A program made the translations under genes and the position numbers. From a virus, in the IMG/VR virus record IMGVR_UViG_3300018890_000001, positions 96,628 to 160,627 of that record: a stretch of 64,000 bases of DNA; one strand, given 5' to 3'. Each line of letters opens with the position of its first letter. Within the stretch, counting starts at the first letter, position 1. Of the stretch, positions 2,420-53,601 are shown piece by piece. The notes below the pieces were generated by a model. The model was not told the origin of the DNA and searched no databases. It saw nothing but the letters and a program-made list of their open reading frames with translations.

Positions 2420-2480
2420 AATTGATTAATTTGCGACTACAAAATTATCATATCAAGGCAACAAGAAAGTGTCAAGCAAA

Positions 2481-2690
2481 TTATGGGCGATCAAAAACAC
2501 GCTCTTCTTCTGGTGCGAACCGATCGCCCGCAGCACCAATACTTTCTCCGCCAAGTCCGATACGCAGCTCGTTATGAGTAATCGCGCCAATGCGGTACAG
2601 CGTATTCATTTTTACTAAATGAGCCATTTCCGCTTCACTTAATAACCGAGATTGCGAAAGCGATTGCAGTTTGTCAAATATTGATTTCAT
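2481..2690 (-). CDS. Small protein resembling the portal C-terminal segment
   Basis: LYRIGAITHNELRIGLGGESIGAAGDRF vs portal LFEKNLATRNEMRLATGLQPIGPAGDKF. Confidence 0.65.
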   Translation of the reverse strand: MKSIFDKLQSLSQSRLLSEAEMAHLVKMNTLYRIGAITHNELRIGLGGESIGAAGDRFAPEEERVFDRP

Positions 2691-2694
2691 ATTT

Positions 2695-3891
2695 TTAAGC
2701 AGGAATTACTTCTAAACTCGACTGTACCTCGAACAATGTCCACGGGTTGACTTCTATCTCGGAGAGCGGTTGCCCTGTGAACGAGTTTTTCAATTCAGTC
2801 TTCGGCACCGAATAAATACCTTCAGCTTTTTCGAGCTCACTGGCAAGCGTCTTATGAAATTCGAGATCTCCCCAAATCCCAAAAGGTGGATTGATCGCAT
2901 CGACGATCGTCTGGGCAACAAGGTTAAACCGCTGCTGCTGTGTCAAATCCCGCACAAAACCGACAGTTACTTTGCCGTCGATTGGAATGATTTCTGCCGC
3001 CCTGAATTCCAAAGGTTGTGATTCCATCGCCAGCGGGCGTGTTTTCTCTTCAACGACAGCGACCTGCTGTTCAGGCCAAACGGCAACGGTCACTAAATCG
3101 GTCCAGTGTCCGACAGTTCCGTACTGAGATGAGAGCACCAAAGTTTTCTTGCTACCAAATTCTTGAGCAGCCAAGTAGTAATCTTCTTTATTGACGACGC
3201 GCCCGATTTGGGCGGAAGTAAGATTTGGTGCATTACCGCGTCGGAATCTGTTGCGCGCTCTGATCATCATGTCGATTAGCGTTTCGCGATCGCGCCCTTC
3301 AGAAACAGCAGTTCCATCGTTCGCGACTCCAGATACGTTTGCCAGTAGTCTGGGTAAAACAGAAAACTCACCGGGGATTAAACCAGGGAGTGTACCAAGT
3401 CGGTTGATCCTGGCCGGTACAACTTTGAACTCGTCCGATCCGAATATGCGATCTTCTTTAATCGTGTAAGCGGCCAACGTGTTGTCACGAGAACTCCGCA
3501 CTTCCATGTTGTAAGGAATATCGACCGCGAGTCCAGATCGCATCGCATCAGTCGATCGCCGAAACACTAAATTAATTACTGGATATTCGGCTAACTGCCG
3601 CTCTACGCCAAGCATCCGAAACATCTGCACCCACTCCCAGTCGGGTTTTAGATTCAGTTCATATGCCAGATACTGCATCTGGGCGATCGTTGCCGACGCC
3701 AATATAACGTGCCCTGCTCCGGGTGCCATTGAAGAAAACGGAGAAGGTTCGCCACTGGGTAGTGGTTGTGCCAGTTGGTTTACGTAATTTGCGAGTTGCT
3801 GACTTGGATCGTAATCCCAAAGCTTGTCCGCTTCAATTAAATTCGCTTCAGATTCGAGGCGACGCATTAACTCGAAGTGTTCATCGTACAT
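2695..3891 (-). CDS. Baseplate J/gp47-like protein
   Basis: 398 aa; V.N.....GRDRETL...R.R and VV..EDY..AA motifs typical of baseplate J. Confidence 0.75.
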   Translation of the reverse strand: MYDEHFELMRRLESEANLIEADKLWDYDPSQQLANYVNQLAQPLPSGEPSPFSSMAPGAGHVILASATIAQMQYLAYELNLKPDWEWVQMFRMLGVERQLAEYPVINLVFRRSTDAMRSGLAVDIPYNMEVRSSRDNTLAAYTIKEDRIFGSDEFKVVPARINRLGTLPGLIPGEFSVLPRLLANVSGVANDGTAVSEGRDRETLIDMMIRARNRFRRGNAPNLTSAQIGRVVNKEDYYLAAQEFGSKKTLVLSSQYGTVGHWTDLVTVAVWPEQQVAVVEEKTRPLAMESQPLEFRAAEIIPIDGKVTVGFVRDLTQQQRFNLVAQTIVDAINPPFGIWGDLEFHKTLASELEKAEGIYSVPKTELKNSFTGQPLSEIEVNPWTLFEVQSSLEVIPA

Positions 3892-4142
3892 AATATATAG
3901 TTGAGGTTGTTAATGCCTATGGGTATTAAAAGTCGTATAGGAAGTCCACAAAGAAACCGCAAGCAATTACGAACAGCACAAAGTAGGGCCAGCCACCAGT
4001 CGTCGTACTCCTCCTTGTATTTAATTAGGCAAATATCGTCGCACCCAAAATACTTGGAGAGTACCAGGTTTCCCCAAACAACAACCAGGATGTTGTAGGC
4101 GATTAGCACTGAGAGTCTGTGTGCGACAACAAAATTAGACAT
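3867..4142 (-). CDS. Small membrane protein (GTAG-leader cassette)
   Basis: Two hydrophobic segments; GTAGTC leader. Confidence 0.55.
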   Translation of the reverse strand: MSNFVVAHRLSVLIAYNILVVVWGNLVLSKYFGCDDICLIKYKEEYDDWWLALLCAVRNCLRFLCGLPIRLLIPIGINNLNYILCTMNTSS

Positions 4143-4236
4143 ACTTGCATATCTTGAGACTACAATGCGAGTTTAACACTATGGACTTGATCGCCCCCTT
4201 GTTACGCTAAAAGCGTGATCGCCGGAAAATCAACGT

Positions 4237-4542
4237 ATGAATATCGAGCTAACTCCAGAGCAGGTTGAGTTTATCGAACGCGCGCTTGCCAGTGGACAGT
4301 ACGGAAGCGTTGAGGAAGTATTGTCTCAAATTGTGGCGATCGGAATGAAGGAAGTTACGCAGCAAGTTGACCGAGAAACCGAACTGCGAAGCTCAAAAGA
4401 ACTTTATGCACCGGCGCTTGCGCAAAATTCGTGTGAAGATACGGAGCTTACCAGTGAGTACGAGGAATTTGTGAAAGCAATGGCTGAAGCTAGGGGGCGA
4501 TCGAAAAGCTTACGAGCTTGCTTTGGGGAATTGATTGAATAG
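4237..4542 (+). CDS. ParD/CC2985-like ribbon-helix-helix antitoxin
   Basis: MNIELTPEQVEFIERALASGQYGSVEEV N-terminus. Confidence 0.75.
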   Translation: MNIELTPEQVEFIERALASGQYGSVEEVLSQIVAIGMKEVTQQVDRETELRSSKELYAPALAQNSCEDTELTSEYEEFVKAMAEARGRSKSLRACFGELIE

Positions 4543-4575
4543 TCGATCACCCGAAACTCCTATTATTTACACCTT

Positions 4576-5646: not shown

Positions 5647-5652
5647 GTTGTT

Positions 5653-6258: not shown

Positions 6259-6271
6259 GAAAGGGAAGAAG

Positions 6272-7367: not shown

Positions 7368-7394
7368 GTTGCTGTAGCGTTAGCTTGGGGCGTC

Positions 7395-7682: not shown

Positions 7683-7910
7683 GTGAGATTCAACGCAACC
7701 GAAGATCGGATCAAACAAATTGTGGTGAATGCCTGCAAAACACAGTTACCGCTCGTTTGTAAAAACTTGAAGCCAGAAGATATAGAACTTGACGATCGCG
7801 GATTAGTTATAGCAGATAGGGTTAAGTTGATTATCCGAAGAGCTGGCGCGTATAAATGGGAAATTGATGATGAAATAGATCGAGGTTGGCATGGATGGGT
7901 CGATATCTAA
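7683..7910 (+). CDS. Hypothetical protein
   Basis: AAGGAG SD before GTG. Confidence 0.6.
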   Translation: MRFNATEDRIKQIVVNACKTQLPLVCKNLKPEDIELDDRGLVIADRVKLIIRRAGAYKWEIDDEIDRGWHGWVDI

Positions 7911-7975
7911 CCAACAGCGACCGCGCTCGTAGATTCTGTGTTGAAAATCAATAACTAAAAAAGGAGATTAAATTC

Positions 7976-8206
7976 ATGACATTTATTTACAACAAGGCGT
8001 TGGGTTGTGCAGTATACAATCCGCTACTAACGGGATTTGAACTCAAGCACAATTATTTTGTTATTTCTGAAGAATGCAAAAACTCTTTAATTTATTTGCA
8101 AAGATGGGCGATCGAAAGTAACGGTCGTGAGATATTTAATTGGGCGAATTTAGTGACTGTGGCGGATCAAATAGGACTACCATCAGAACAACTTGTGAAT
8201 TCTTAG
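7976..8206 (+). CDS. Hypothetical protein
   Basis: AAGGAG SD. Confidence 0.65.
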   Translation: MTFIYNKALGCAVYNPLLTGFELKHNYFVISEECKNSLIYLQRWAIESNGREIFNWANLVTVADQIGLPSEQLVNS

Positions 8207-8323
8207 AAAAGTGGGGGAAGGTGCGCGACGGTTTGTTTGAAGCGAAGAGGTTAACATCCAGACAAATTCGCGAACAAGTTGAAAAAGGCAAGAAGAAGGT
8301 TTTATCATAATTCCGATCGCCCA

Positions 8324-8581
8324 CTACTGTCTTTTGTGCCAATTATCGGTTTTCGTCTGCAAGTTTAACCAAATCTGAGCATCCATGAATAACGCTTTAC
8401 CGATCGCCAATGCTGTATCTTGGGTGATCGGTTTTTTATTGTCTATGATATCCCTTAGATCGTTAACCTCAATTCTGCTCATCCTTGCAAACTCAGTAAG
8501 CGTAATTTGGTTATCTTCGAGTATATCTGCGAGGATTTCACCGGGAGTGACGGGTGAAACTTTCCGATCTTCAATACTCAT
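8324..8581 (-). CDS. higA: HigA/VapI-family addiction-module antidote (XRE HTH)
   Basis: PVTPGEIL...KKPITQDTALAIGKAL..AQIWLNLQ. Confidence 0.85.
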   Translation of the reverse strand: MSIEDRKVSPVTPGEILADILEDNQITLTEFARMSRIEVNDLRDIIDNKKPITQDTALAIGKALFMDAQIWLNLQTKTDNWHKRQ

Positions 8582-10026
8582 ATTTTTCCGTTGGTTGTGC
8601 CCCTGGCTTTTGCCGGAACGGTTTGCGCGGAAGCTGCTTTCCCTGGGATATTGGTTTTCGAGGCGATCGCCTTAGAACCTTTCTCGATCGTCACTTCTTC
8701 GACTACAGCACCATCCTCTTCGGGAATAGCCTTCTCATCTTTTGGTGGTTTTTCTGGACCTGGTGGCAGAGCTGCTTCTTGTGCCGGTTCGCCTTCGAGT
8801 CCAGTGCCATCCATAAATTTGTCGCCGGCCGGTCCAATCGGTTGCAGCCCTGTAGCAAGACGCATCTCGTTTCGCGTCGCCAAATTTTTCTCGAACAGCA
8901 TTGTCGCTCGGGTCGCTTCCTGTTCTTCGGTACGCTTTTCTAAGTCGGCGTATTCCTTTGTAAAACCGGGTTCGTAGTAGTTTACAAGTTCTAGGTTTTC
9001 GTGCTCGTTGAGGATGTTGGCGATAGGAACCACACCTTCTTGGTAAGATGCGTCTGCCGACACACCAGCGGTGGCATACGTGAATTGTTCGTGGCCCAAG
9101 TCTTTGGGTGTTAAACCGAACGGCATACAGATTAATCGCAGTAGTAACTCAGTCCAACCGAGATAAAGCTCACCGTCGCTCGAAGCACCGAGCGTGACGA
9201 CCTTAATCAAACCTTTGCCTCCGGCGATCGGTGTTTGACCGTCGATCTCTACTTTCGTGTTCCAGTAATCTCGAAACGCATCGAGTTCTACTTGGGTTAC
9301 ATCTCCGATGTCGAGGATGTACTTGGCAGAAACTTTGGAAGTCGCGTTGTGCTGGAAGTTGTTGAGCGCCAACCAAGACAGTACATACGGAAACGCGATC
9401 TCGACAGGTGACGGCGGCATAAGCTCGTAAGAAGCGCTGTCGATCTGCATAATGTACATATCTTCGTCAGCCAGCAACTCCTGCGTAGTGTAATCTTTGC
9501 GGTAGAGGTAGCGAGCTTCTTCTGGATTATCCTGCCAAACAGGATTGAATTCTATTTTGGCGGCATCGATACAGAAAGCAAAAAACCTGCGGATGCTTTT
9601 ACTATCTCTTTTTAATAAATCATCGTTACCGTGCATCCGCTGTATCGCCGCGTAGTTAAGCGTCAAAAGGTCTTTAACGACAGCGTTTGTATATTTTGTA
9701 TAAGTATTTTGCGCAAGCTCATAATTAGGTCGGAGCAAGCTGCCTTTTATTTCTTCTGCTCGTTGAATTGCCCCTGGTTTTTCGCGGTCTTCCTTGGGTG
9801 GGCTGATATGCCACGGCATGAGTGATACGCCGCGCTGAATTCTCTGGATGCACTTTGCTACTGGTCCGACGCGGGTGGTCGTTCGCAACAGCTCGAACGA
9901 GGGACGCGCTCGCAAGCGCACCGATTTCTGAAACTCGATCGCTGGGTCGATTTCTGGATAGTGTGGGCGTGGATTGTGAACGTGCGGTCTTAAAAAAACT
10001 AATTTTCCGCGAGTATTTGCAGGCAT
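8578..10026 (-). CDS. Phage portal protein
   Basis: LLRPN, DLLTLNYA, ICMPFGLTPKDLG, TRNEMR...GLQPI..GD motifs; probable start ATG 10026. Confidence 0.85.
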   Translation of the reverse strand: MPANTRGKLVFLRPHVHNPRPHYPEIDPAIEFQKSVRLRARPSFELLRTTTRVGPVAKCIQRIQRGVSLMPWHISPPKEDREKPGAIQRAEEIKGSLLRPNYELAQNTYTKYTNAVVKDLLTLNYAAIQRMHGNDDLLKRDSKSIRRFFAFCIDAAKIEFNPVWQDNPEEARYLYRKDYTTQELLADEDMYIMQIDSASYELMPPSPVEIAFPYVLSWLALNNFQHNATSKVSAKYILDIGDVTQVELDAFRDYWNTKVEIDGQTPIAGGKGLIKVVTLGASSDGELYLGWTELLLRLICMPFGLTPKDLGHEQFTYATAGVSADASYQEGVVPIANILNEHENLELVNYYEPGFTKEYADLEKRTEEQEATRATMLFEKNLATRNEMRLATGLQPIGPAGDKFMDGTGLEGEPAQEAALPPGPEKPPKDEKAIPEEDGAVVEEVTIEKGSKAIASKTNIPGKAASAQTVPAKARGTTNGKI

Positions 10027-14074: not shown

Positions 14075-14235
14075 TGTACGATCTCCTGATCTGTTTATAC
14101 TCTATTATTGTACGACGAAACATAAATAAAGTCAAATTTAGCCTATTTTAGAAGGGTTTTAGACTCAAAAAGTGTATTAAATTGACTATTTTATGGACAA
14201 CCCATATAATAATTGTGTAGTTTTTACCTAGATCT

Positions 14236-15677: not shown

Positions 15678-15762
15678 TAGATCTGAGTTACAACAACGAC
15701 TACGTTATTATAATACAACAAAAAAGCGTAATACAAAGTTATTTGTATTACGCTTTTACAGA

Positions 15763-16308: not shown

Positions 16309-16442
16309 TGTTTTGACACTCAAGTTTTATATATTTCTATATATTATAATATGATATGTTTGTTAAAATAGCTAGTTAATTTTTATTGTAATACTAGGGT
16401 GTATATTGTATTATAAATATGTAGTCGTTCAAGTCCTTCGTA

Positions 16443-18077: not shown

Positions 18078-18196
18078 TGGATTGAAAAGTAGCTACATTT
18101 TTAGTGTATGACATTAGATTGTTATACACAATTGATATGCTTGTATTTTAACGCAATTAATATTACAATTTATTTGTAGTTAATTTTCGGAATCCA

Positions 18197-18646: not shown

Positions 18647-18752
18647 CTAAAAAGGAGGTAGCGATTGAATAATGTTCGATCGCCACCTTTTTTATTTTCA
18701 TTTTTTGCAACAACTGTTATAATTTATTTGTAGTTAGATAGAATTCTATGTC

Positions 18753-19262: not shown

Positions 19263-19405
19263 ATAACCAAAGAAGCCAGTGTTAAATAATAGTTTATTTA
19301 ACACTGGCTTCTTTGGTCTGAATAACTCGATCGCCACCTTTTTGTTTGCATTAAATATTGACGAGTGTTATAATTCTGATGTAGTCGCAAACAGAGATCG
19401 ATCTC

Positions 19406-20406: not shown

Positions 20407-20456
20407 GCTAAATACCGATCTAAGATTCTACTACACTATGAATTGTAGCAATAAAA

Positions 20457-21083
20457 ATGCGAGGACTTGTGAAAAGAATAGTTAAATTCAATAGTTGCGA
20501 AGCAGCTAGTAAAGTAGAGCAGCACTTGTACCACGTCGTCCAAGATTTAGATCAATTAAAGTTTTCCGAGTTTGATGAAGCTGCGTTTAAGGCTGCTGTC
20601 GGCTTGGAAGGTTTGACGAGGGCTGATTACAGCTATGTGAGCGACACTGTAATGCCACGCATTGGCATTGGTCTTGCTCCTAGAATGTTCGGACGACCCA
20701 GAATCACACTAGATTTTACGCTTGAAGCGCCCGAGAACCACTATCATCCATTTACGTTAAACGTGTTGCCCGATATTATCGCAATGTCGTCGGAGGGGTA
20801 TGACGAATTTCCATTGGCGATTGACGGTGGATTATTGCATCTGATTCGGATACTTCTAATCACCTTGACTCGTAACAGTGAAGCGAGTAACAAAACGATA
20901 GCGATCGCCACGAGTCTAGAAAGAGCTTGCTTACGGATTGAGACACAGCGATCGCCTCTAACATCTTTCCGCATTGCGCCTATTCGTTATTTTTTAGTGA
21001 TTTGTGGAGCGGGAGATTCTCAGACGCTTGCGCTTAATCTGACCGATGTCGTGCTCAACGTGAACCGCTCAATTTATGAGTAA
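20457..21083 (+). CDS. Hypothetical protein
   Basis: 208-aa ORF; GTAG leader. Confidence 0.75.
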   Translation: MRGLVKRIVKFNSCEAASKVEQHLYHVVQDLDQLKFSEFDEAAFKAAVGLEGLTRADYSYVSDTVMPRIGIGLAPRMFGRPRITLDFTLEAPENHYHPFTLNVLPDIIAMSSEGYDEFPLAIDGGLLHLIRILLITLTRNSEASNKTIAIATSLERACLRIETQRSPLTSFRIAPIRYFLVICGAGDSQTLALNLTDVVLNVNRSIYE

Positions 21084-21168
21084 AACCGTGAAAACCCCAA
21101 ACGCAAAGTCTTTGAAGAGGTGCGTTCAGGGTTGTCACGGGTAGTCGATCTCAGATCCAATCAATCGT
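21083..21168 (-). ncRNA. Candidate anti-leader sRNA (~86 nt)
   Basis: Extended -10 TGTTATGCT (21175-21183); 28-nt single-stranded 5' arm; ~20-bp stem with G:U pairs only on the minus strand; U-tract. Confidence 0.7.
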
Positions 21169-21220
21169 GTTTCAAGCATAACACGACATAGAATTAAATT
21201 ACCGATATTCAAAAAAATAA

Positions 21221-24052
21221 ATGGCGACACCTATATCTAGGGAACTCTACAAGAACTTACCTTATTACTTGCGAATGCTTGATGAGCAAGGATCTGGGAT
21301 GCTTAAGCATCTTACAGATCCAACTCAGACGCAACTAGATAAGTGGACAGATGCCAAGGGGATGATCGAACTAATCGAGAATCCCGACATCATTCCTAAA
21401 AGTTGGGCATATTGGGCGCAGCAAAAAGTTGGTGGTGCCGGTACACGGGAACACTGGCTTGGTATCGGTGTACACCCGGATTGGCCTGTCGAGCGGATGC
21501 GTCGGTTTTTGCTCGAAGGTTGGAACTACTGGAACACCAAAGGTACTCAAAAGTCAATTCGGTGGGCGATCGACTTTTGGCTGGATTGGGAAAAAGCGCA
21601 AAATCCAATTTATCTTGAATTTCGTAGACCGTTTGGCGATCGCCCGACATCCGAACCGACTCAGTGGTGGTCTTATGCGACACCTTATGGCGCGCACACA
21701 ACGCAGCACTATACCGAATTTCAGTTTTGGGGCGGCGGAGATTACCCGCAACAGTATCAACCAGATGCTAGGACTTTACGTCAGGATACGTGGCAGTGGG
21801 ATTTTGAAGCAGTGTGGGACGATCGCCAGCTTGTACTCGATCGCCCACCTGAAATCGACAATTCGAGATCTGGCTTGGGACCGAGAAATGTATGGATGCA
21901 CTTCCACGTCGATGAATTTGAATGGAATAAGGTGGCGCTCGACATTCACAAGCTAAATCCAGAGACTTATCACGTACTTGCCAGACCGCAGGTTTTTCTA
22001 TGGCAAGATATCGAAGTCGATCTGAAGCTTATTGAAGATCCAGATTTCCCGATCGCCAACACGAAAATTCTCTACGATATCGACGGATTCCAGTTCGGTG
22101 ATATTTTTCCGTGGCCAGCAGACCAACTACCACGAACTGAAATCGAAGCCGTGCAAATGGCTTGGCAACCAGAGCCTTACTTTCAGTTCGACGACTGTCT
22201 TGGTGGAGCCGGCGGTGAAATCGTACCCCATTCCGATAGATACAGTTCGGTCGAAGTGCAGCGGTTTTCTGCATACTGGACAGCTTACATTTTTTCAACG
22301 GAAGTAATTAAAATAATTTCCGTTCCGGGCGTATCGACAGAACAAGCTGTAATTCCGACAACTATTTCGGTATCGAACGAACTCGGTCAAGCAATCGTCG
22401 GAATCGAGCTGGAGATTGCAAGTGAGCGCAGCATAGTCATCGGTGCTGACTATCAAACCCTTTACGGATTTGAACCAAATACAGAATCTGTCGTTGAGCG
22501 AACCACACAACTTATTTTTTCGCAGGCGATCGAGTGGTTTACCGATTACCTTGATTGCTTTGGCGGTGACACACCAAGCTTGCCAGGAAATCAGTGGTCT
22601 GCGGGCGATCGTTACGTAGAAGTGGAAATTGTTACGGTAACTGCTCCAAGCCTCGAAGGTCAACCGAGTGAGTTTTGGCAGACCACGACCTTCCGATCGC
22701 CCGCTGACGAACAAATCGAAGTTGTGGAAACAGTCGAATGTCTTGGTTTTAACGGGGCAAATTATACCGACACTTACGCCTGGGATGTTCCGGCAACTTC
22801 GACGCAAAATACCACTACAGCAATTCGATATTTACCGGGTGCAAGTTTTCAAGATTGCTTCACCGAAATCTGGACTTCGACGATCGAGGATATTACGGTT
22901 GTCGAAATTGAGACTCCAGGACGCAGCGGCGCCGGAACTCCTTGGACGATCGCCAGAGGTGCTTGGATCGAAACAGTCGAAGAATTAATACCCGGAATCC
23001 CTGAATTTACAGACCCGGCTACAACACACCTCTGGTACGTAAATTACCGAGAGTGGACCGAAGAAGTCGAAATTGAGATTCCGGGTGTTCAAAGTTGTTG
23101 GTCGGGATTGCTGGCGGATGTTACGACAGAATTTCAAGAAATACAAATCCCAGCAGAACCTGGATTTCCGCCGCTGCTCTGGGGTGATATTTCCCCCGAC
23201 ACCCAAACAATTACCACAACCCCAGGTAGTCCCGGCAGTGTCGGCATCGACTTTCAATCTCCTTATCTTGGTTTTGGACTACCACAATCGATCGCCCATG
23301 ACGTTGCACCGATTTCACTAGATGGAATTGCGTTCCTGACAATGGATCTCAGTCCGCAGTTACCGACTACTTTTAATCCCAGTGTTGTCTATGACTTATT
23401 TGCAGGCGAAGATCAAAGTCTCAACTCCGAAGACTGGTGGCAGTACCCAGGAAAACAGTCCGTGGACACCGTTGTTGCCGATGTCGGGGGATTCCGCCTC
23501 GACAAGCCACAGTTATGTTTCCAATATCTCGACACCTACGGTCAAAATCTTGAATGGTACGCTTACGGTATACCCACCGAAGCGGATACCCGGATTGAAC
23601 CGATCGCACAGCATTACAACTTATGCAACGTTGTCGATAACTACACGCTAAGCAAAATTGAAAACTGGCGCGAGATTACAGATTCGATACCAGAGTCTGA
23701 ACTGGCGATCGAGAAAACATACCCGATACTACAACAAGTCGCAAAACAGCAATCTTGGACGCTTTCAGTTGAAACCGATGAAGAGTTGCTACTCGTCGAA
23801 CCGTTGGTGATTTTTACAGAAAAAGATGGCGAGCGTTCACTGGCGATCGAGTTAGATCGAAAACTCAATCTCGAATTCGTATTTATTGTGGGGCGGTTTA
23901 CACACATCAGATCGATCTCTTTGTTTGTCGGACACGAGATCGTTGAAAGCAAAACTTATGCGATTCCGCTTAACGTACATCCTAGAGATAAGATTGGCTT
24001 TAAGTTTTTATTGAGTTTAGTTCCGCAACCTGTAACAGCTTTACCTGTGTAA
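21221..24052 (+). CDS. Tail/baseplate protein (phage tail protein I-like N-terminus, long acidic Trp/Pro/Thr-rich body)
   Basis: LYKNLPYYLRMLDEQG, NPDIIP..W..WA.Q..G, RRFL.....WNTKGT..SIR. Confidence 0.7.
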   Translation: MATPISRELYKNLPYYLRMLDEQGSGMLKHLTDPTQTQLDKWTDAKGMIELIENPDIIPKSWAYWAQQKVGGAGTREHWLGIGVHPDWPVERMRRFLLEGWNYWNTKGTQKSIRWAIDFWLDWEKAQNPIYLEFRRPFGDRPTSEPTQWWSYATPYGAHTTQHYTEFQFWGGGDYPQQYQPDARTLRQDTWQWDFEAVWDDRQLVLDRPPEIDNSRSGLGPRNVWMHFHVDEFEWNKVALDIHKLNPETYHVLARPQVFLWQDIEVDLKLIEDPDFPIANTKILYDIDGFQFGDIFPWPADQLPRTEIEAVQMAWQPEPYFQFDDCLGGAGGEIVPHSDRYSSVEVQRFSAYWTAYIFSTEVIKIISVPGVSTEQAVIPTTISVSNELGQAIVGIELEIASERSIVIGADYQTLYGFEPNTESVVERTTQLIFSQAIEWFTDYLDCFGGDTPSLPGNQWSAGDRYVEVEIVTVTAPSLEGQPSEFWQTTTFRSPADEQIEVVETVECLGFNGANYTDTYAWDVPATSTQNTTTAIRYLPGASFQDCFTEIWTSTIEDITVVEIETPGRSGAGTPWTIARGAWIETVEELIPGIPEFTDPATTHLWYVNYREWTEEVEIEIPGVQSCWSGLLADVTTEFQEIQIPAEPGFPPLLWGDISPDTQTITTTPGSPGSVGIDFQSPYLGFGLPQSIAHDVAPISLDGIAFLTMDLSPQLPTTFNPSVVYDLFAGEDQSLNSEDWWQYPGKQSVDTVVADVGGFRLDKPQLCFQYLDTYGQNLEWYAYGIPTEADTRIEPIAQHYNLCNVVDNYTLSKIENWREITDSIPESELAIEKTYPILQQVAKQQSWTLSVETDEELLLVEPLVIFTEKDGERSLAIELDRKLNLEFVFIVGRFTHIRSISLFVGHEIVESKTYAIPLNVHPRDKIGFKFLLSLVPQPVTALPV

Positions 24053-24094
24053 CACTTTGTTATATAATGAAGCAGTAGTCGTTAGGTAAATCAT

Positions 24095-24844: not shown

Positions 24845-24903
24845 CTTGTTTGGTTTAAACAAAATAATAGTATAATGTTTATTGTAGTTTATCGAAGTAA
24901 CAA

Positions 24904-27621: not shown

Positions 27622-28413
27622 TTAACCAAATACCGAGAGTTTACCTGACGCAACGCTGCGTAAGGCGTCTAATGCGGTTCCAGTATCGCTCTGGAAGTAT
27701 TTTGCCAGTGTCGGGTATAGCCTGGACGCTAGTGCGGCATCTTCTTCTGGATATGGTTCTTGTGGGAATGCCAGTCCAACGATACAGTGTGACCAGTCCT
27801 TCATATTAAACCGGAAGTCACCTGTTTCTATTTCTCGAAGTGAGTTTCGCGCAAATTCAATTTCTTCAGCTTTCGTACCTAGTCCAGTTGCGCCAGTTAG
27901 GATTGCGCCTGTCAAATCAGCCTCACTTAGATCGACCAAACTCAAATTAGCATTAGTTAAGTTTGTGCCAACTAGCGTTGCCTTAGTTAGGTCAGCTTCT
28001 TTTAGATTAGCGAAGCTCAAGTTAGCGTTAGTTAAATCGACTTGAACCAGATCTGAACATTCAAGATGTGCGCCGGATAAATTAGCATTTATCAAGATGG
28101 CGCGATCGAATCGTGCATACGTTATCTTTGCAATTTGCGCATTTGCGTTCGTTAGATTTGCGCCTCGAAAGTCCGCATTATGTAAAGTCGCTGAAGAAAG
28201 ATCCGCATCGGTTAAATTCGCATCTTCAAAACAAGCTTCCGTCAGCAACGCGCCATTCAAACGACAACCGATCAGATCCGCCTTAGTAAAACTTGCTCGT
28301 GACAATTGGGCATAAGATAATCTTGTGCCGATTAAGTTGCATTCACTGAAATCCTGAGCGCCTAGTTTTTCTGCACTTAGGTCAACTCCAGCGTAATCTG
28401 CTTTGTATGTCAT
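27622..28413 (-). CDS. Pentapeptide-repeat protein with conserved C-terminal domain
   Basis: A(D/N)LxxA repeats; LYPTLAKYF..AL.ALR..ASGKLSVF. Confidence 0.9.
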   Translation of the reverse strand: MTYKADYAGVDLSAEKLGAQDFSECNLIGTRLSYAQLSRASFTKADLIGCRLNGALLTEACFEDANLTDADLSSATLHNADFRGANLTNANAQIAKITYARFDRAILINANLSGAHLECSDLVQVDLTNANLSFANLKEADLTKATLVGTNLTNANLSLVDLSEADLTGAILTGATGLGTKAEEIEFARNSLREIETGDFRFNMKDWSHCIVGLAFPQEPYPEEDAALASRLYPTLAKYFQSDTGTALDALRSVASGKLSVFG

Positions 28414-28571
28414 AGAGTTGAGATATAAACTACTTCTTTATTATATTATTTGGTATTGAATATGTAAAGAAAATATAACTTTCTTGAGGTACTGTTGATG
28501 TTAAAATAAAAAACAAACCAACCGCGTTACGGGCGATCGGTTTGTAAAAGTCACATTAATTGGTTCACCAT

Positions 28572-29986: not shown

Positions 29987-30128
29987 TGTTTTGCGATCTC
30001 TTGATTGACTACATTATTATTTTATCTGTTTACGCTTTATTAGTCAACGTGATTACATATAAAAAGCCTCGCAAGATTAATTGATCTTGCGAGGCTTTTT
30101 TATTCATAAAACAAAGACGGAAATATCG

Positions 30129-30762: not shown

Positions 30763-30957
30763 TTTACAACACAGTAAAGATCATATGCTTATATTAAAGG
30801 AAAATTAGCTTCTCGTCAAGTTATCACCGATCGCCCGCAATAGATAATCTAATCAGGAAGTATTGAAATCTTACATCAGCATTCGTGATTAATTGAGTGA
30901 TGATGTAACTGGAGTTATATAATTGATCTAATCAATCGTAAGTAGTGGATCGATCTA

Positions 30958-33302: not shown

Positions 33303-33401
33303 TTTATATAAAAAGAAAGACTACACTTACAGTATAGCTTACCGTAAACCTATTGAAAAGAAAATTGAACGTGCAACTTATGTTGATAACACGCTAAGAA
33401 A

Positions 33402-39385: not shown

Positions 39386-39793
39386 TTACAGTGGATCTGA
39401 ACCGCTAGCGACAATGGTGTGTCGCTCGACGCCTAATTCTTGGGCGATCGATTCCATCATTGGTTTTATTTGTTTGAACCTCATTTTAGGATCTGGACTC
39501 CATTGGATGATAGGCTCAAAAGATATTTGTGCTTTTTCAAACGCAGTCACAATCGCTTCGGCACGTATAAAACTTCGACTGGTTGTTGCTAGTTTGATGT
39601 TGTACTTTGCGTCTATTATCACAAGCCAGCATAAGTAACTATTGTCATTCCTGTTTTTACATACTTCCATCTGAATGACTTGATTGCCGTCACTTAAATC
39701 AATAAGTACGTTAAAAGATGTTTGCACGTCATCAACATAGAATTCATGTCGATTCACGTTGTTGAATTCGCGTTCTTTGAATTTAACGTTCAT
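39386..39793 (-). CDS. Tandem family protein copy 1
   Basis: Paralog of the next three; GTAG leader. Confidence 0.75.
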   Translation of the reverse strand: MNVKFKEREFNNVNRHEFYVDDVQTSFNVLIDLSDGNQVIQMEVCKNRNDNSYLCWLVIIDAKYNIKLATTSRSFIRAEAIVTAFEKAQISFEPIIQWSPDPKMRFKQIKPMMESIAQELGVERHTIVASGSDPL

Positions 39794-39888
39794 GTGATTG
39801 TGGAGCTATTTAAACTACATCTAAATTTTATCATAAAAACACCCCTTATACAAATGAATAGTCTGTATAAGGGGTGTTGATTTAATTG

Positions 39889-40314
39889 CTAAATACGATA
39901 AATGGGGTGCGCGCCAGCTTGGATAAGTCTGGGACGTTTCACGCCAATCTCGTTACCGATCGCCTCTAAGATATTTTCGATATCAGTAGAAGCCAGCGGA
40001 TGTTTAATCGATTCGCCTTTCTGGTATTCCCATGAAATCCCCATATTTGCAAACGCAGCACGCACTGCTTCACCAACCGAGGCACTGGCTGTATTACCAC
40101 CTCTGGCATTGCTTTGCAAATATACATCACTTAATTCAATCTTTACGGTTATGGCACAGTAATAATCTGTTCGACCTTGAAATACTTCTAGTCTAATCGC
40201 TTCAATTTCTTGAGAGCAGTCAAACCAGATTATCGTGGTCAACAATTTGTCACTAACTCTACCGTTTTTTGAATTTGTGAACAAACCTTGACGGTGTTGT
40301 AACGAAGCTTTCAT
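39889..40314 (-). CDS. Tandem family protein copy 2
   Basis: DC..E.IRL....YYC..., AF...GIS, AI...G..R. Confidence 0.8.
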   Translation of the reverse strand: MKASLQHRQGLFTNSKNGRVSDKLLTTIIWFDCSQEIEAIRLEVFQGRTDYYCAITVKIELSDVYLQSNARGGNTASASVGEAVRAAFANMGISWEYQKGESIKHPLASTDIENILEAIGNEIGVKRPRLIQAGAHPIYRI

Positions 40315-40429
40315 GTAATTGATTTATCGAAACTACATATTTAGTTTATCATTAATGTATTTGTAAGTCACGTAATTTAACACAAAAAATAACCCCACAC
40401 GAGAATAGTTTATGCGTGTGGGGTTCTTT

Positions 40430-40819
40430 TTAGCGGTTCGCGTCTACGCTATGTATGTACCACCTTTCTACTTCTGTGGCGCTTGCCATTGCGTTAATAG
40501 CGGGTTTGATTGATTCAAGCATTCGATAATCATAATCTGGTTCTGGAGGTAAACTGTCAAAACGTATATTCGCGTTAGCCAATGCTTGGCAAAAAGCGTC
40601 AAAGCGGCTATCTCCCTTACCACTGGTAGTCAAATCCATTACACCATCCTCAATCCAGATACAGCAGTAATACACAGCTCCTTTTTTGTAAAGGTCTAGA
40701 CGTATTAACTGCTCTTGTTTGTCGCAATCAATGACAACGCATTGTCCGATCAGACTATTGTCCGGTCTGTGTGCAGATTTAAGTGAACGTGCAAACTTGT
40801 TGACGTACTCGACTTTCAT
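40430..40819 (-). CDS. Tandem family protein copy 3
   Basis: IDCD...RLDLYKKG..YYCCIWI...SGKG.SRF. Confidence 0.85.
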   Translation of the reverse strand: MKVEYVNKFARSLKSAHRPDNSLIGQCVVIDCDKQEQLIRLDLYKKGAVYYCCIWIEDGVMDLTTSGKGDSRFDAFCQALANANIRFDSLPPEPDYDYRMLESIKPAINAMASATEVERWYIHSVDANR

Positions 40820-40936
40820 GAGATTGATTTATCTGAGACTACACATTTATTTTATCATTGATGTATTCGTAAGTCACGCAATTTAACACAAAAAAAAGAA
40901 CCTACATAAACTAATGTGGGTTCTTTTTTACTTATT

Positions 40937-41347
40937 TTAATTGGAGCGCATACAGTGATGTATGTAAGGTCTTTCTGCTCCCGCAGCTTCAGCAATTGCC
41001 GTGAAGACGTATTCTAGTTTATCCCAAACCTGAATGTCGAAATTACTTCCGAGTTCGGGCAACGGGTGCTCGAAAGAGATGTCTGCGCTGTCTAGTGCAG
41101 CATAAACAGCACCAAAACGACTGTTAGCTTTGCCACTACCAGTTATATCGACTTCCTGTTTGTCTGCCCAGCCTCTGATCCAAATACAGCAGTAATAACT
41201 TTTTTCCCCTTTCTTGTAAAGATCTACACGAACAGGTTCTTTTTTACGATCACAGTCGATCGCCACTAATTGTCCTGCTAAGTGCGCATGGTGGATATGG
41301 CTGGAATTGATTTCTCTGTGAATACAACTTGCAAAAGATGCTTTCAT
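40937..41347 (-). CDS. Tandem family protein copy 4
   Basis: IDCD...RVDLYKKG..YYCCIWI...SGKA.SRF. Confidence 0.85.
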   Translation of the reverse strand: MKASFASCIHREINSSHIHHAHLAGQLVAIDCDRKKEPVRVDLYKKGEKSYYCCIWIRGWADKQEVDITGSGKANSRFGAVYAALDSADISFEHPLPELGSNFDIQVWDKLEYVFTAIAEAAGAERPYIHHCMRSN

Positions 41348-41377
41348 ACAATTGATTTGTCTGAGACTACTTCTTTA

Positions 41378-41827
41378 TTATACTATTAAAGCAATCTCTT
41401 GTCTCTCATTTCGATCGCCCGTCAGCTTAAATTTTCCACCTATTCGAGGAGTGAGCCAAGGTACATTAAGTCTGTAAGTTGAATAACTCCCTTTTACTAC
41501 ACCAGTATGCGCGGATGGGATACCTTCATCTTTGGCCTCCGACTCAATATCTCGTGTACTAGAGCCGTAAGATTGCAGCAGTGTTTGTACTAATTGACCA
41601 TAGCAAAAGCAAAAGTGCGGATCCATTTCAGTTAGGTACGTCGCGATTGCTTCGCAGTCGAGACAGGTGTAGTGGCGATCGAAATACCCTTCAATTAACG
41701 TTGTTACGCGGTGCATCATCGTACCTTTAGGCATCAGCTCTTTGCACTCCACACATTTGTGGGGTGATCTTATTTTTACCAGCTTTTTAATATGGATATC
41801 AGTCGATACAAAGTCACAGTCACACAT
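41378..41827 (-). CDS. Cys-rich Zn-binding phage protein
   Basis: MCDCD...HKCVEC...YTCLDC. Confidence 0.75.
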   Translation of the reverse strand: MCDCDFVSTDIHIKKLVKIRSPHKCVECKELMPKGTMMHRVTTLIEGYFDRHYTCLDCEAIATYLTEMDPHFCFCYGQLVQTLLQSYGSSTRDIESEAKDEGIPSAHTGVVKGSYSTYRLNVPWLTPRIGGKFKLTGDRNERQEIALIV

Positions 41828-41933
41828 TTTAGTTGTCCTTGAGGTGGTAGATTTTTATTGTATACCCTAACGTTTATGTTTACATTACACCGCTTATGTT
41901 TTATTATATAAGTGTAGTTTATTTGCTCAGAAT

Positions 41934-42614
41934 ATGAAACGCGAATTATTTCAAGTCCCTGTTAATCGTCAAGATGCAGAACGTCAAGACAAAACTTATT
42001 TCTCATATGTTGATATCGTCGGTGCGGATCTTTCTTGGTTGAAATTAGCCGGAAAGGAATTCCGTGGTTCAGACCTCAGACAAGTTTCATTTGTTGGGAC
42101 TTGGTTGCAAGAATGTTCGTTTGCTGGTGCTAATTTAAGTGGTGCCGATTTGCACTGTTCCTGCCTGCGAAAAGCTTCTTTCATGAAAGCTAACTTGCAA
42201 GGTGCTAATTTACGAGCAACAGATCTGCGAGATGTTGATTTTTATCTTGCAGATATGCGAGGTGCTGATCTAACTAATGCCGACCTAAGAGGTGCTGACC
42301 TCGGTTGCGCGGACTTGACTGGCGCGAACTTGAAAGGGGCGATCGGATTGGGAACCAAGCAAGGTGAAATGGAATTTGCTGCTAACTTGGTTGCTCAACT
42401 AGACGCAGAACAGGATTCCCGAATCAAACAAGAATGGCGAAACAATCCAAGTTACGTGATGTGTGTTTACCCCAAAGAGTTTGATTACAATCCTGGGAGA
42501 GAGCGTTCTCTCCTGTATCCGACACTTGCCAAGTTTTTCCACGGTCGTGGTGATGAAGCGTTAATTGCGCTTCGTAAAATTGCGACTGGTGAACTTTCGG
42601 TATTCAACGACTAA
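41934..42614 (+). CDS. Pentapeptide-repeat protein, paralog of 27622..28413
   Basis: Repeats plus LYPTLAKFF..ALIALRKIATGELSVF. Confidence 0.9.
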   Translation: MKRELFQVPVNRQDAERQDKTYFSYVDIVGADLSWLKLAGKEFRGSDLRQVSFVGTWLQECSFAGANLSGADLHCSCLRKASFMKANLQGANLRATDLRDVDFYLADMRGADLTNADLRGADLGCADLTGANLKGAIGLGTKQGEMEFAANLVAQLDAEQDSRIKQEWRNNPSYVMCVYPKEFDYNPGRERSLLYPTLAKFFHGRGDEALIALRKIATGELSVFND

Positions 42615-43702: not shown

Positions 43703-43801
43703 TATTAAAACCTCTAGAGTTTTCTGGAGGTTTTTTTGTGTTTGACTTGTTTGTATAGAAATATTATGCGATAATAATTACATCCAATCAATAGAAATAT
43801 C

Positions 43802-44675: not shown

Positions 44676-44774
44676 AAAGTTTGATTTGTGACTACATCGT
44701 CAATAGTATATTTTAGTGTGACTAAAGTCAAGCATTATGATACAATTTGTGTGTTGTGTTCTTTGAGGTTATAT

Positions 44775-46483: not shown

Positions 46484-46647
46484 TGGATTCGATGTATCTA
46501 AACTACATATTTATAATACCAAAAATTATCAAACAGTGCAATTGATTTACGTATTAATATAAAGCAATGCTAGTTAGCTACATTAATGCTTGTCTTATTT
46601 ATACAAATTGCATACAATAAAGAAGTAGTCGCAACCAAGATGCTGTT

Positions 46648-49294: not shown

Positions 49295-49306
49295 GTTCGT
49301 ATTAAG

Positions 49307-49369
49307 AAAGACTACTCTATTATTATACTATATATAATGTATCTGTAGTATAATAATAGAGTAGTCTTT
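49307..49369. promoter_or_regulatory. Perfect 24-bp inverted repeat forming twin divergent promoters
   Basis: AAAGACTACTCTATTATTATACTA-15-TAGTATAATAATAGAGTAGTCTTT. Confidence 0.9.
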
Positions 49370-49381
49370 TAAGGATCGATC

Positions 49382-51340: not shown

Positions 51341-51438
51341 AACAAAAACCCAGAGATCGTCTTATCTCTGGGTTTTTTGATGTTAAATATATTTGATTTT
51401 CTGGTATAATAATAGAGTAAAGTTATAGAAACAAATTC

Positions 51439-51717: not shown

Positions 51718-51727
51718 ACAATTAAAC

Positions 51728-51765
51728 AAAAAGCCCCGCAGGGTATTAATCCTGCGGGGCTTCTT
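51728..51765. terminator. Palindromic terminator; inverted copy at 52206-52243
   Basis: AAGCCCCGCAGG gtattaat CCTGCGGGGCTT. Confidence 0.9.
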
Positions 51766-51802
51766 TGTGTTTTCAATCAATTACTCAGTATCTTACAAAT
51801 AG

Positions 51803-52150
51803 TTAGCGGTTTACGTTTTCTTGCCAATTTTGCCAAAAGAGAAAACGACTTATATTGTCATTCCCACATAGCCAACAAGTTTCTTTAGATATATTTCTTG
51901 ATGGAATTGAGAGAAGCCAACCGTCTTCTTCTAATTCGTTCAATACTGACTCTGTTGCGACGTGCGTATCCCCTATTTTCTTAGCAATCGTCAGCATTGT
52001 GCTGTCGTCATCTTCGATAAAAGCTTTTAAGACTTTTCGCTTTATCTCGCTAAGCTCTCCGAACCGGATACTGAGTAGTATTACTTCGCTGTGTTTGTCT
52101 AGATATTTATTTGTAAGTTCTTTATCTATGTGTTTTAGTTTTTTGTTCAT
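51803..52150 (-). CDS. Winged-HTH-like protein
   Basis: TMLTIAKKIG......ESVLNELEEDGWL. Confidence 0.65.
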   Translation of the reverse strand: MNKKLKHIDKELTNKYLDKHSEVILLSIRFGELSEIKRKVLKAFIEDDDSTMLTIAKKIGDTHVATESVLNELEEDGWLLSIPSRNISKETCWLCGNDNISRFLFWQNWQENVNR

Positions 52151-52205
52151 GTTTTTGGGTTGTACCGTCTGTTTCTATCTTAGTGGGTGATCAGAGTCTT
52201 TAGTA

Positions 52206-52243
52206 TAAAAAGCCCCGCAGGATTAATACCCTGCGGGGCTTTT
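52206..52243. terminator. Palindromic terminator; inverted copy of 51728-51765
   Basis: AAGCCCCGCAGG attaatac CCTGCGGGGCTT. Confidence 0.9.
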
Positions 52244-52245
52244 TA

Positions 52246-53490
52246 TTATTTAACTTTAGGTTTGGTAACGGGTAGTTCTAGTTTTTCGACTAAGTAGTCA
52301 AAAATGCGCTCATCTGCACCAGAAGTTATTACCTTCCCCTGCGTGTTCAGTACGCCAATGCCACCAACTTCAAGCCAATCAGCATTGGCTTTAGTCCAGT
52401 CTATTAATGAAAGTTTTTGCAAAATGGCAAGTTTACCTTCACCTAAAGGTTCTGTGGTCGGCATAAACACACTTTCCAACTTACCGATCGCCTTGACAGT
52501 AATTGCGTGTGTGGCGATCGTCTCCCGTCTGACTATGACAGGATCTTGTTCCCAGTCTTTCATGACTTGAGAAATAGCGCGCCAATACTGACGAACTACT
52601 CGTTTTTGTTCGTCTATGGGGCTGTGCTTAATGTGTTTGCGAGAGAACTCGATCGCCTCCTGCAATGTTTTGTACGGGAAAATCTTTTCGCTTTTCCCAG
52701 TTATTGATGGTTTGCCGTATTCAATGCAATCTTGAGAAAATACGGAAATGCGATCGTCGTGATCTTGAGCGATAATGTGGGACACGAGGTGCGTCCCCGG
52801 ATTGCGGTGATCCATCGATTTCGATAGACCTGTTGAAACCCGCGTTTGCTCTTCATTGATATCGCGAAACGCTTGTCTGCGGGCAATCACGCCGTCAATC
52901 TTGTAAAGTGTAGCCGTGATATATTCATCAGCTAGCGTCGGGTCTTCTCGCAAAGCGAGATTTAGACCAAGCAGGCGATGTTGTCCATCTAGAGGAAACA
53001 GTTTTGTTCCCTCGTGTAAGCAAAGTTCACCGTATCGTCCACCAACTTCAAAGAAGTCAAATCCGCCTTGAATCACAATTGTGACTGCGGGAAGAATATG
53101 CGATGTCCTGTTTGCTAACAAGTAAACAGAGAGTTTTTTGACTTTCGGTCCTTTAACCTCACGTTGAATACGCTCCGGTTGCGGAACATTTTTTTCTGCA
53201 AATGTCAGTAGTTCTGAAAGATCACCAATTTTTAGCTGAACTGCATAAAATTCGCGGTCTGCCTGGATGCCTTTTAGTGCATCAAACTTTATCCAACATG
53301 GTTGGCTGGCGATCGGTTCGATCTGCTCTTCACCTATTATGGGTTTAGCAAATTCGACTGGTGTTTCCTCTTGAGAGGCATCTAACTGCTTTTGAGCTTC
53401 TGCTAGAGACTTCAACACGCCTGGTTTGGAGGAGGGCGAAGCTTTACTCGCGGGAGTCACCGATTTACTAGAACTTTTTTTGATTGACAT
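52246..53490 (-). CDS. DndB-like DGQHR-domain protein
   Basis: ERIQREV, ILPAVT, LDGQHR, RQAFRDINE. Confidence 0.85.
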   Translation of the reverse strand: MSIKKSSSKSVTPASKASPSSKPGVLKSLAEAQKQLDASQEETPVEFAKPIIGEEQIEPIASQPCWIKFDALKGIQADREFYAVQLKIGDLSELLTFAEKNVPQPERIQREVKGPKVKKLSVYLLANRTSHILPAVTIVIQGGFDFFEVGGRYGELCLHEGTKLFPLDGQHRLLGLNLALREDPTLADEYITATLYKIDGVIARRQAFRDINEEQTRVSTGLSKSMDHRNPGTHLVSHIIAQDHDDRISVFSQDCIEYGKPSITGKSEKIFPYKTLQEAIEFSRKHIKHSPIDEQKRVVRQYWRAISQVMKDWEQDPVIVRRETIATHAITVKAIGKLESVFMPTTEPLGEGKLAILQKLSLIDWTKANADWLEVGGIGVLNTQGKVITSGADERIFDYLVEKLELPVTKPKVK

Positions 53491-53601
53491 AAATGGAACT
53501 TATTGATCGACTACATTTATATTTATATTATTAGGTGGATATATTCAAGCAAAAAGAAACCCACCAAACCAATTAATTTAATTGGTTTGGTGGGTTTCTT
53601 T

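Follow-up and report, generated by a model that had tools for sequence, protein, structure and literature searches.

A conserved transcribed tag in the host-type promoters of a phage lineage and a candidate small RNA complementary to it

The 64,000-nucleotide window analysed here comprises bases 96628-160627 of a 199,763-bp IMG/VR virus record (G000), rated complete by CheckV, and many of its genes are preceded by a bacterial-type promoter whose -10 hexamer is followed, six bases further on, by GTAGT. Judged by their sequence, these promoters are a clade-specific class of ~45 host sigma70-type promoters that carry a conserved tag, GTAGT(C/T), in what are predicted to be the first six nucleotides of the transcript. 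We propose that the genes behind them may form a regulon controlled at the RNA level, in which the shared leader tag would be the pairing site of an ~87-nt small RNA (sRNA) apparently encoded in the same window, and we put the probability of this reading at roughly 45%. Altogether, the observation of a host-type promoter class with a conserved transcribed tag is confirmed, and its interpretation, which involves a candidate multi-target antisense RNA, is partly supported.

A promoter class with a transcribed tag

The pattern TANAAT-N6-GTAGY occurs 14 times in the window, compared with 0.27 +/- 0.55 times in shuffled sequences (shuffle maximum 3), and 19 times across the whole genome (95 sites per Mb), where the reversed pattern occurs once. 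These controls reject chance or base composition as the source of the motif, and they bear out a promoter-plus-leader class, far above expectation, that an earlier sequence-only reading of this DNA had described. Every gene start listed in that reading, from 2419 to 53490, has the element; its by-eye count for the window was ~28 genes, and ours is ~24 credible tagged elements there and ~45 in the genome. An origin by gene duplication is largely rejected as well, the paralogous families being few and small (2-4 members) and their members only 25-47% identical.

In our own gene call, on which the counts are based (241 genes in the whole G000 genome), 53 genes have GTAGY 18-29 nt 5' of their ATG, the distances peaking sharply at 20-23 nt, and ~45 of the 53 also have a correctly spaced -10. 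The spacer between the -10 hexamer and the G is 6 nt in 32 of these 53 genes, and in 17 of 31 in the related phage G002. When the tag was not presupposed and all pentamers 6 nt past any TAnnWT before the start of an open reading frame (ORF) were counted, GTAGT came out 34 times and the runner-up 3 times in G000, and 20 and 5 times, respectively, in G002. The hexamers at +1 to +6 are GTAGTC (34), GTAGTT (18), GTAGTA (2) and GTAGTG (2), so that +6 is C or T in 52 of 56 cases, and variants with one mismatch are rare.

A matrix of 36 seed sites aligned on the G, in which T-12, A-11 and T-7 were fixed by the search pattern, shows T-35 in 30 sites, T-34 in 28, G-33 in 21, T-15 in 29 and T-1 in 24. 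The layout of the element is therefore a -35 TTGaca, T-15, a -10 TAtAAT, an A-rich 6-nt spacer and GTAGT(C/T), with 19-26 nt (mode 21) from the G to the ATG. TTGACA-like -35 and TATAAT-like -10 boxes 16-18 bp apart are what is expected of promoters for group 1, sigma70-type factors. By canonical spacing, transcription is predicted to start at the G of GTAGT(C/T), give or take 1 nt, and the pppGUAGU ends named in the sequence-only reading share the strength of this prediction.

Protein searches found neither a sigma70 region-2 protein nor a T7-type RNA polymerase encoded by the phage, and hence the host RNA polymerase is the simplest reader of the -35 and -10 boxes. The nearest approach to a sigma factor is a helix-turn-helix resembling sigma70 region 4, with a sub-threshold score (21.3 bits, E 4e-5), in a 182-aa protein whose gene is itself tagged. 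The promoter machinery probably does not depend on GTAGT: roughly half of the phage's sigma70-like promoters with short leaders are without it, the candidate sRNA would begin ACGAUU, and a large non-coding RNA encoded in another part of the genome has GTAAAA after its promoter. With these untagged promoters, the role of the tag as an obligatory promoter part is rejected, and calling the signature genome-wide overstates the distribution of the ~45 elements. Since the -35 and -10 boxes would be read by the host polymerase and GTAGT is dispensable, the transcribed tag requires a separate explanation. There is, moreover, a second leader class, found at three promoters, in which the -10 (TAnnAT) and N6 are followed at the predicted +1 by ATCCAATCAA(T), which replaces GTAGT.

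Leaders, genes, relatives and host-type genomes

Tagged leaders are poor in Shine-Dalgarno (SD) sequences. GGAG or GAGG stands in the SD window of 2 of the 53 tagged leaders but of 45 of the 187 other genes (Fisher p=6e-4), and the GGAGG-like box 5-10 nt before the start codon that marks SD-led initiation is accordingly not a property of the class. The description of these leaders as SD-less is upheld by this contrast inside the same phage; featureless they are not, as they carry boxes that the sequence-only reading had not described. ATC is present in 35 of the 53 tagged leaders and in 44 of the 187 others (p=3e-8), with a peak 5-10 nt before the ATG, and AATCA in 14 of 53 and 3 of 187, respectively. 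These boxes are oriented (ATCA 16 versus TGAT 1; TCAA 16 versus TTGA 2), and several tagged leaders end with GATCC or AATCCA directly before the ATG.

The tag fronts single accessory or replication genes and not virion genes. Tagged genes encode three pentapeptide-repeat paralogs, a leucine-rich-repeat protein, two beta-clamp-like proteins, a DndB-like protein and many small proteins without a family, and the pentapeptide-repeat fold is known for DNA mimicry. The genes of the portal, a baseplate-like protein, a giant protein of 4865 aa and other structural-looking proteins are without the element, in agreement with the earlier claim that virion genes start differently. The protein repertoire of G000 further includes a family-A DNA polymerase and a helicase.

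Database searches found no close relative of G000 among deposited phages. Relatives were reached by alignment-based searches. Four records, 60-83% identical to G000 in protein, came to light through homologues of the clamp-like protein of 720 aa: G002 (a complete genome of 188 kb with terminal repeats), G001 (44.5 kb), L016 (11 kb) and L018 (22 kb of a 39-kb contig, 60% protein identity). G007 (101 kb, polymerase 58% identical) is more distant. Even between G000 and G002 only ~97 kb can be aligned, at ~73% nucleotide identity. The element is present in all four closer relatives, and G002 has 14 strict sites against 1 in the control (23 with a looser -10; 74 per Mb). In orthologous promoters the -35, the -10 and GTAGT(C/T) persist, the tag being kept in ~13 of 15 clean comparisons (judged by eye from the listing), while the spacers and the remaining leader vary freely, with ~16-60% identity per column. 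Conservation of the tag amid diverging spacers and leaders points to selection on the short elements themselves. In G007, by contrast, GTAGT sites are absent and no other start pentamer predominates either, which makes the tag an invention of this clade; as a promoter signature it holds for the four relatives but is not common to all related phages. As a separate observation, a tagged unit of promoter, leader and gene is duplicated in tandem at 7834-8869 of G002 (L003), and the leaders of the two copies are identical (GTAGTCAAAAACAGGATCATTCTC).

The highly iterated palindrome HIP1 (GCGATCGC) occurs 61 times in G000 where 3 copies are expected, a ~20-fold over-representation that fits a cyanobacterial host. 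All four phage records show a 20- to 80-fold excess of HIP1 (61, 24, 84 and 131 copies in G000, G001, G002 and G007, respectively), and CGATCG is ~10-fold in excess in G000, G001 and G002, the three records counted.

We searched four cyanobacterial genomes for the promoter pattern and obtained 47 matches versus 20 for the reversed control in Microcoleus sp. BROC3, 34 versus 32 in Microcoleus sp. D2_18a_B4, 36 versus 38 in Nostoc linckia and 28 versus 35 in a Coleofasciculus metagenome-assembled genome (MAG). This is ~5 per Mb (the Microcoleus genomes measure 7.5-7.8 Mb); the complete phages G000 and G002 have 95 and 74 per Mb, respectively. The only host excess, in one Microcoleus genome, is due to a dispersed hairpin repeat with TAAAAT-TGGTTY-GTAGT and not to a promoter at gene starts. 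A promoter habit of the host is therefore rejected as the source of the signature, the four host-type genomes being at control level; equal frequency in the host had been set beforehand as the test on which the sequence-only reading was to fall, and the phage lies far higher. The hairpin repeat itself, TA(A/G)AAT-TGGTT(T/C)-GTAGTGAGGACT...AGTCCTCACTACAAACC, which can also be written GGTTTGTAGTGAGGACT...AGTCCTCACTACAAACC after TAAAAT, has many copies per genome and is not a tRNA; examples are L144-L148 (Microcoleus sp. BROC3), L151 (D2_18a_B4) and L149-L150 (Coleofasciculus MAG).

A candidate antisense RNA and competing explanations

We analysed the intergenic locus at 21083-21168, which the sequence-only reading had named as a possible reader. 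On the minus strand, an extended -10 (21183-21175) and 6 bases are followed by a 28-nt arm, ACGATTGATTGGATCTGAGATCGACTAC (21168-21141), a ~20-bp stem (21140-21086) and four U (21085-21082). The arm is a single-stranded 5' stretch that ends with GACUAC, and its reverse complement, GTAGTCGATCTCAGATCCAATCAATCGT, reads as a consensus of the tagged leaders. G002 has the same putative gene: its arm agrees with that of G000 in all 27 shared positions, and the extended -10, the stem and the tract of 4 U are conserved; its arm has an additional 16-nt repeat unit (GATTGATTAAATCTGA) that is not in G000. In the light of the ~73% identity of the genomes, the conservation of the arm supports the RNA link. 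The stem has 27 predicted pairs, four double compensatory changes between the two sequences rebuild its lower part, and both phages retain one G-U pair that would become an A-C mismatch if the other strand were read; consequently, the structure fits the minus strand only. A conserved structure and a conserved single-stranded seed, as expected of a trans-acting sRNA, are thus found in the two sequences available.

Complementarity between leaders and arm also exceeds chance once the tag is disregarded. With GTAGTC removed from the leaders and GACUAC removed from the arm, tagged leaders of G000 and the real arm give a mean predicted duplex energy of -8.86 kcal/mol, compared with -5.48 kcal/mol for untagged leaders and -5.22 kcal/mol for shuffled tagged leaders. 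The same tagged leaders reach -4.92 +/- 0.59 kcal/mol with 200 shuffled arms (best -6.77), -4.00 kcal/mol with the reverse complement of the arm and -5.02 kcal/mol with the reversed arm; when 1200 natural genomic 22-mers served as mock arms, the best gave -7.50 and none of the 1200 reached -8.86. For G002 leaders with the G002 arm the value is -9.07, against -6.03 +/- 0.67 kcal/mol for shuffled arms, and with the leaders of L018, L016 and G001 the arm beats all 200 shuffled arms. Richness in GATC palindromes or HIP1 as a cause of false complementarity is rejected by the reverse-complement arm, the reversed arm, reverse-complemented leaders and the k-mer asymmetry.

Exact matches of at least 11 nt to the arm's complement are few, and one of them is a tagged leader. 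The ATCCAATCAA(T) promoters, which lack the tag, match the other half of the complement (corresponding to the 5' half of the arm), two with 11-12 nt and one with 10 nt; the leader of the 134-aa gene has an 11-nt exact match to this half. In the helicase leader both arm modules are present, with GTAGT ~12 nt downstream of the predicted start. At genome position 86412, a perfect 15-nt match to the arm's complement stands just 5' of an SD, and the G002 ortholog retains 10 of these nucleotides in the corresponding position. This 15-mer precedes a 130-aa ORF (ATG, then GAATGGTACGAT...) on the minus strand, within a 1.4-kb gap in the gene call (genome ~85885-87298) that lies ~9.3-10.7 kb before the window start.

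We thus propose a mechanism in which GACUAC of the sRNA, abutting the terminator helix, would pair with +1 to +6 of the mRNA, and the upstream part of the arm (GAUUGAUUGGAUCUGAGAUC) with the ATC boxes of the leader; in this second module, AATCAAT in the leader would face GAUUGAUU in the arm. A G in the arm that can pair with C or U would tolerate the C/T ambiguity at +6. The duplex might run from the 5' end of the mRNA to the start codon: predicted duplexes cover 60-90% of the leaders at each position from -20 to -1 and would, at this coverage, occlude the ribosome-binding region. One RNA could then coordinately block translation, or alter stability, of the whole tagged class, for example in a shut-off of accessory or early genes as the sRNA accumulates, a candidate direction and timing. 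A bolder form, which we regard as rather less probable than the pairing site as such, makes this single sRNA a master post-transcriptional switch that pairs with ~45 GUAGU(C/U) transcripts from +1 to the start codon; the 5' end of the mRNA would possibly stack on the terminator helix of the sRNA itself, and an entire temporal or accessory gene class might be switched off, or protected, in one step. Such a switch would be the RNA-based equivalent of a global repressor, or of phage immunity; no integrase or resolvase, which would bear on immunity, was found in the phage.

Several findings weigh against the RNA. A canonical scan of the sRNA locus calls neither a promoter nor a terminator; the extended -10 has no -35, and the tract has only 4 U. 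Conservation of ~90% extends across the whole intergenic region and is not confined to the arm, and the arm is invariant between only two genomes that carry it, G000 and G002. With GTAGTC set aside, uninterrupted complementarity to the arm amounts to only 4-6 bases in most leaders. Raw duplex energy is not specific genome-wide: leaders are 7 of the top 60 genome sites in G000 and 2 in G002, and CGATCG-rich or GC-richer coding windows score as well as leaders, so that on thermodynamics alone the arm is no uniquely specific probe. Complementarity would also be expected if the plus strand were the most consensus-like copy of a leader, kept for another reason. The RNA had been suggested as a reader, and it is a plausible one, with its complementary and fully conserved arm and its predicted pairing above controls.

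Searches for further copies of the sRNA with a 17-mer in the viral collection returned only G002 and two chance matches. Neither the sRNA nor the tag was found in G007, which fits a link between the two as a single data point. An origin of the sRNA in the host was rejected, host-type genomes giving only marginal 25-nt matches.

Among the other explanations, the one that survives best, although we consider it unlikely, is an effect at the DNA level: GTAGT would tune the host RNA polymerase from the start site or the initially transcribed sequence (through start choice, contacts with the core recognition element or promoter escape), or would be an asymmetric operator overlapping +1 for a DNA-binding regulator of the phage, and the match to the sRNA would be incidental. 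This would explain why the tag keeps a more constant distance from the -10 than from the ATG, and T-1/G+1 agrees with the known start preference for a pyrimidine at -1 and a purine at +1. The phage also encodes small proteins of the helix-turn-helix type, such as the region-4-like match mentioned above, yet a core of 5-6 bp is short for a specific DNA-binding protein, and many equally good -35/-10 promoters of the same phage do without GTAGT. The oriented ATC/AATCAAT boxes downstream, the ATCCAATCAA(T) leaders and the helicase leader are left unexplained.

The ATC boxes are accounted for in a scheme of SD-independent ribosome recruitment, in which they would pair with GGAUCA in the 3' tail of 16S rRNA, and the 30S subunit or protein S1 would recognise the 5'-terminal GUAGU; we think it quite improbable. 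Against the 16S tail, for which a generic sequence was used in place of that of the host, tagged leaders give -3.64 versus -2.47 for their own shuffles (p=9e-4), with the GGAUCA part accounting for the effect (-2.77 versus -1.88). The position of the ATC peak and the leaders ending with GATCC or AATCCA are in line with this scheme. The effect of ~1 kcal/mol is, however, small compared with ~4 for the sRNA arm, untagged leaders are predicted to bind the tail better than tagged ones (-4.67 versus -3.64), and TCAGA, CAATCAAT and GTAGT remain without an explanation.

We give equally little credence to a protein reader of the 5' tag, such as a translational regulator, an RNase or an enzyme that modifies 5' ends, for which the plus-strand copy at 21141-21168 would be a decoy or an autoregulatory site. 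A strict 5-6-mer at the predicted 5' end would suit such a protein, as would the most consensus-like leader copy on the plus strand of a conserved intergenic region, and with most tagged genes encoding family-less proteins there is room for one. No candidate protein was found, and the minus-strand features (the conserved G-U pair, the one-sided U tract and the conserved extended -10) argue for an RNA gene instead.

Mobile regulatory cassettes, promoter-leader blocks that would be copied along with accessory genes or recombine between them as in T4-type phages, and would owe their shared sequence to common descent and gene conversion more than to a shared regulator, have a similarly slim prospect: one promoter per small gene, paralogous genes with similar blocks (four genes of 129-141 aa at 39386-41347; the three pentapeptide-repeat genes) and recurring identical spacers such as AAAGAA are in keeping with them, but most tagged genes are unrelated, the paralogs are only 25-47% identical, the blocks are unlike outside -35, -10 and GTAGT, and orthologous blocks keep the tag while their spacers and leaders diverge.

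Known systems and further features

Antisense pairing at the 5' end of an mRNA is known from RNA-OUT and RNA-IN of IS10. The candidate sRNA likewise resembles P22 sar and P1/P7 c4 as a short structured RNA with a free arm that would pair with the start of a message over its translation start (PMC12197685). The phage antisense RNAs covered in the same review (among them OOP, aQ, sar and c4) act on one or two targets each, and for none is there a description of dozens of transcripts of the same phage being reached via a common 5' tag; c4 of P1/P7, which acts at more than one site, is a case of a phage RNA on repeated complementary sites (PMC12197685). Known targets usually belong to the same operon or lie opposite the RNA gene, whereas here ~45 separate transcripts are candidate targets in trans.

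The tag is most reminiscent of the start-associated sequence (SAS) and its extended form (ESAS) in Cluster K mycobacteriophages, which are also short, asymmetric, phage-specific, used in one orientation and placed before many non-structural, unrelated genes, and for which the reader is considered to be "either RNA or protein" (PMC3203893). Like SAS, which is kept across subclusters, it is conserved across relatives and essentially absent from the host (PMC3203893). SAS, however, is a 13-mer 3-7 bp from the start codon with the SD core AGGAG (PMC3203893), whereas the tag lies 19-26 nt upstream in leaders depleted of SD; and here, unlike for SAS, the phage genome itself encodes a candidate RNA with complementarity to the leaders. 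The promoter early stem-loops (PeSL) of T4-type phages resemble the class as repeated early-type promoters for host RNA polymerase before small accessory genes in variable regions (PMC2839356, PMC4122927). They are longer homologous terminator/promoter blocks, proposed as recombination points (PMC2839356, PMC4122927), whereas here only the -35, the -10 and a tag of 5-6 nt are common and the signal reaches into the mRNA leader; even between orthologs, spacer and leader columns are too dissimilar for the extended homology that would suffice for recombination. T4 early promoters share consensus -35 and -10 boxes, a T-15 or extended -10 flavour and the lack of an own polymerase (PMC2988021). A strictly conserved +1 to +6 sets the class apart from ordinary sigma70 early promoters, as it lies outside the sigma70 definition and is not above control in host-type genomes.

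Phage gene programmes are usually ascribed to promoters, sigma factors and protein repressors. In this large uncultured phage lineage of soil-crust-type cyanobacteria, about one fifth of the genes share their first six (predicted) transcribed nucleotides together with SD-poor leaders. If the RNA link holds, this would be the first case of a phage that controls its own messages by antisense RNA on the scale of a regulon, via a common 5' tag. One RNA and one hexamer would then be a handle for switching dozens of uncharacterised accessory genes together, and such joint switching on and off would be useful for learning their functions. If the link fails, the tag is still a clean, testable conserved initially transcribed sequence, akin to the unexplained SAS of mycobacteriophages.

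Table 1. Positions of tagged promoters, variant leaders and the candidate sRNA (window coordinates unless marked as genome). "Tagged" denotes a tagged promoter with its leader; G, position of the first base of the tag; aa, amino acids.
Feature	Position	Strand	Details
Tagged, 90-aa gene starting at 2419	2420..2476	-	-35 TTGACA, -10 TATGAT, N6, GTAGTC at 2440
Tagged, 279-aa gene	14181..14235	+	G at 14217; kept in G002 ortholog
Tagged, 178-aa gene	15678..15739	-	G at 15703
Tagged, 202-aa gene	16385..16442	+	G at 16421
Tagged, 149-aa gene	18140..18196	+	G at 18176
Tagged, 169-aa gene	18694..18752	+	G at 18730
Tagged, 159-aa gene	19345..19405	+	G at 19381; kept in G002 ortholog
Tagged, 152-aa gene	20407..20470	-	G at 20434; 7-nt spacer
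Candidate ~87-nt sRNA	21082..21168	-	5' arm, stem, U tract
Extended -10 TGtTATGCT for candidate sRNA	21175..21183	-	TGtTATAGT in G002; no recognisable -35; missed by canonical scan
Putative -10-like TAGAAT, 943-aa gene	21189..21194	+	TAAAAT in G002; would give a 20-nt untagged leader
Tagged, 98-aa gene	24039..24094	+	G at 24075
Tagged, 86-aa gene	24848..24903	+	G at 24884; 7-nt spacer
Tagged, 263-aa pentapeptide-repeat protein	28414..28469	-	G at 28433
Tagged, 188-aa leucine-rich-repeat protein	29987..30048	-	G at 30012
Variant leader, 596-aa helicase	30918..30957	+	TATAAT, AATCAATCGT, GTAGTGGATCGATC; both arm-matching modules, GTAGT off predicted +1
Tagged, 96-aa gene	33303..33360	-	G at 33324
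Tagged, 135-aa gene	39794..39854	-	G at 39818
Tagged, 141-aa paralog	40315..40372	-	G at 40336
Tagged, 129-aa paralog	40820..40878	-	G at 40842; leader GTAGTCTCAGATAAATCAATCTC; among best arm matches
Tagged, 136-aa paralog	41348..41406	-	G at 41370; kept in G002 ortholog
Tagged, 226-aa pentapeptide-repeat protein	41878..41933	+	G at 41914
Second leader class, 134-aa gene	43770..43801	+	GATAAT, N6, ATCCAATCAAT at predicted +1 (43782), no GTAGT
Tagged, 136-aa gene	44676..44731	-	G at 44695; 7-nt spacer
Tagged, 114-aa gene	46484..46542	-	G at 46506; kept in G001 ortholog
Tagged, 142-aa gene	46589..46647	+	G at 46625
Divergent tagged pair, 720-aa and 652-aa beta-clamp-like genes	49295..49381	both	G at 49315 (-) and 49361 (+)
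Tagged, 414-aa DndB-like protein	53491..53550	-	G at 53514; leader GTAGTCGATC..., 10/10 arm match; weak -10 TATAAA
Other second-class leaders (outside window)	genome 25895-25943, 75366-75400		
Three pentapeptide-repeat paralogs, each with own tagged promoter	window 27622-28413, 41934-42614; genome 20944-21603		
182-aa tagged gene, possible DNA-binding regulator (outside window)	genome 32359-32907	-	sub-threshold sigma70 region-4-like helix-turn-helix

The divergent pair of promoters before the two clamp-like genes is near-perfectly symmetric and is conserved in G001, G002, L016 and L018. GTAGT also abuts the 5' side of each clamp -10 (GTAGTATAAT), and a third, nested match (49333-49349, G at 49345) arises in this way. 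Orthologs of the DndB-like gene retain the tagged element. No tRNA or Rfam family was found within the 64-kb window. The 943-aa gene next to the candidate sRNA (21189-24052) has no sequence match in Pfam, PHROG or PDB, and weak atlas leads connect it with tail/baseplate proteins of the P2 gpI type; its TAGAAT stands back to back with the extended -10 of the sRNA, 8 bp apart.

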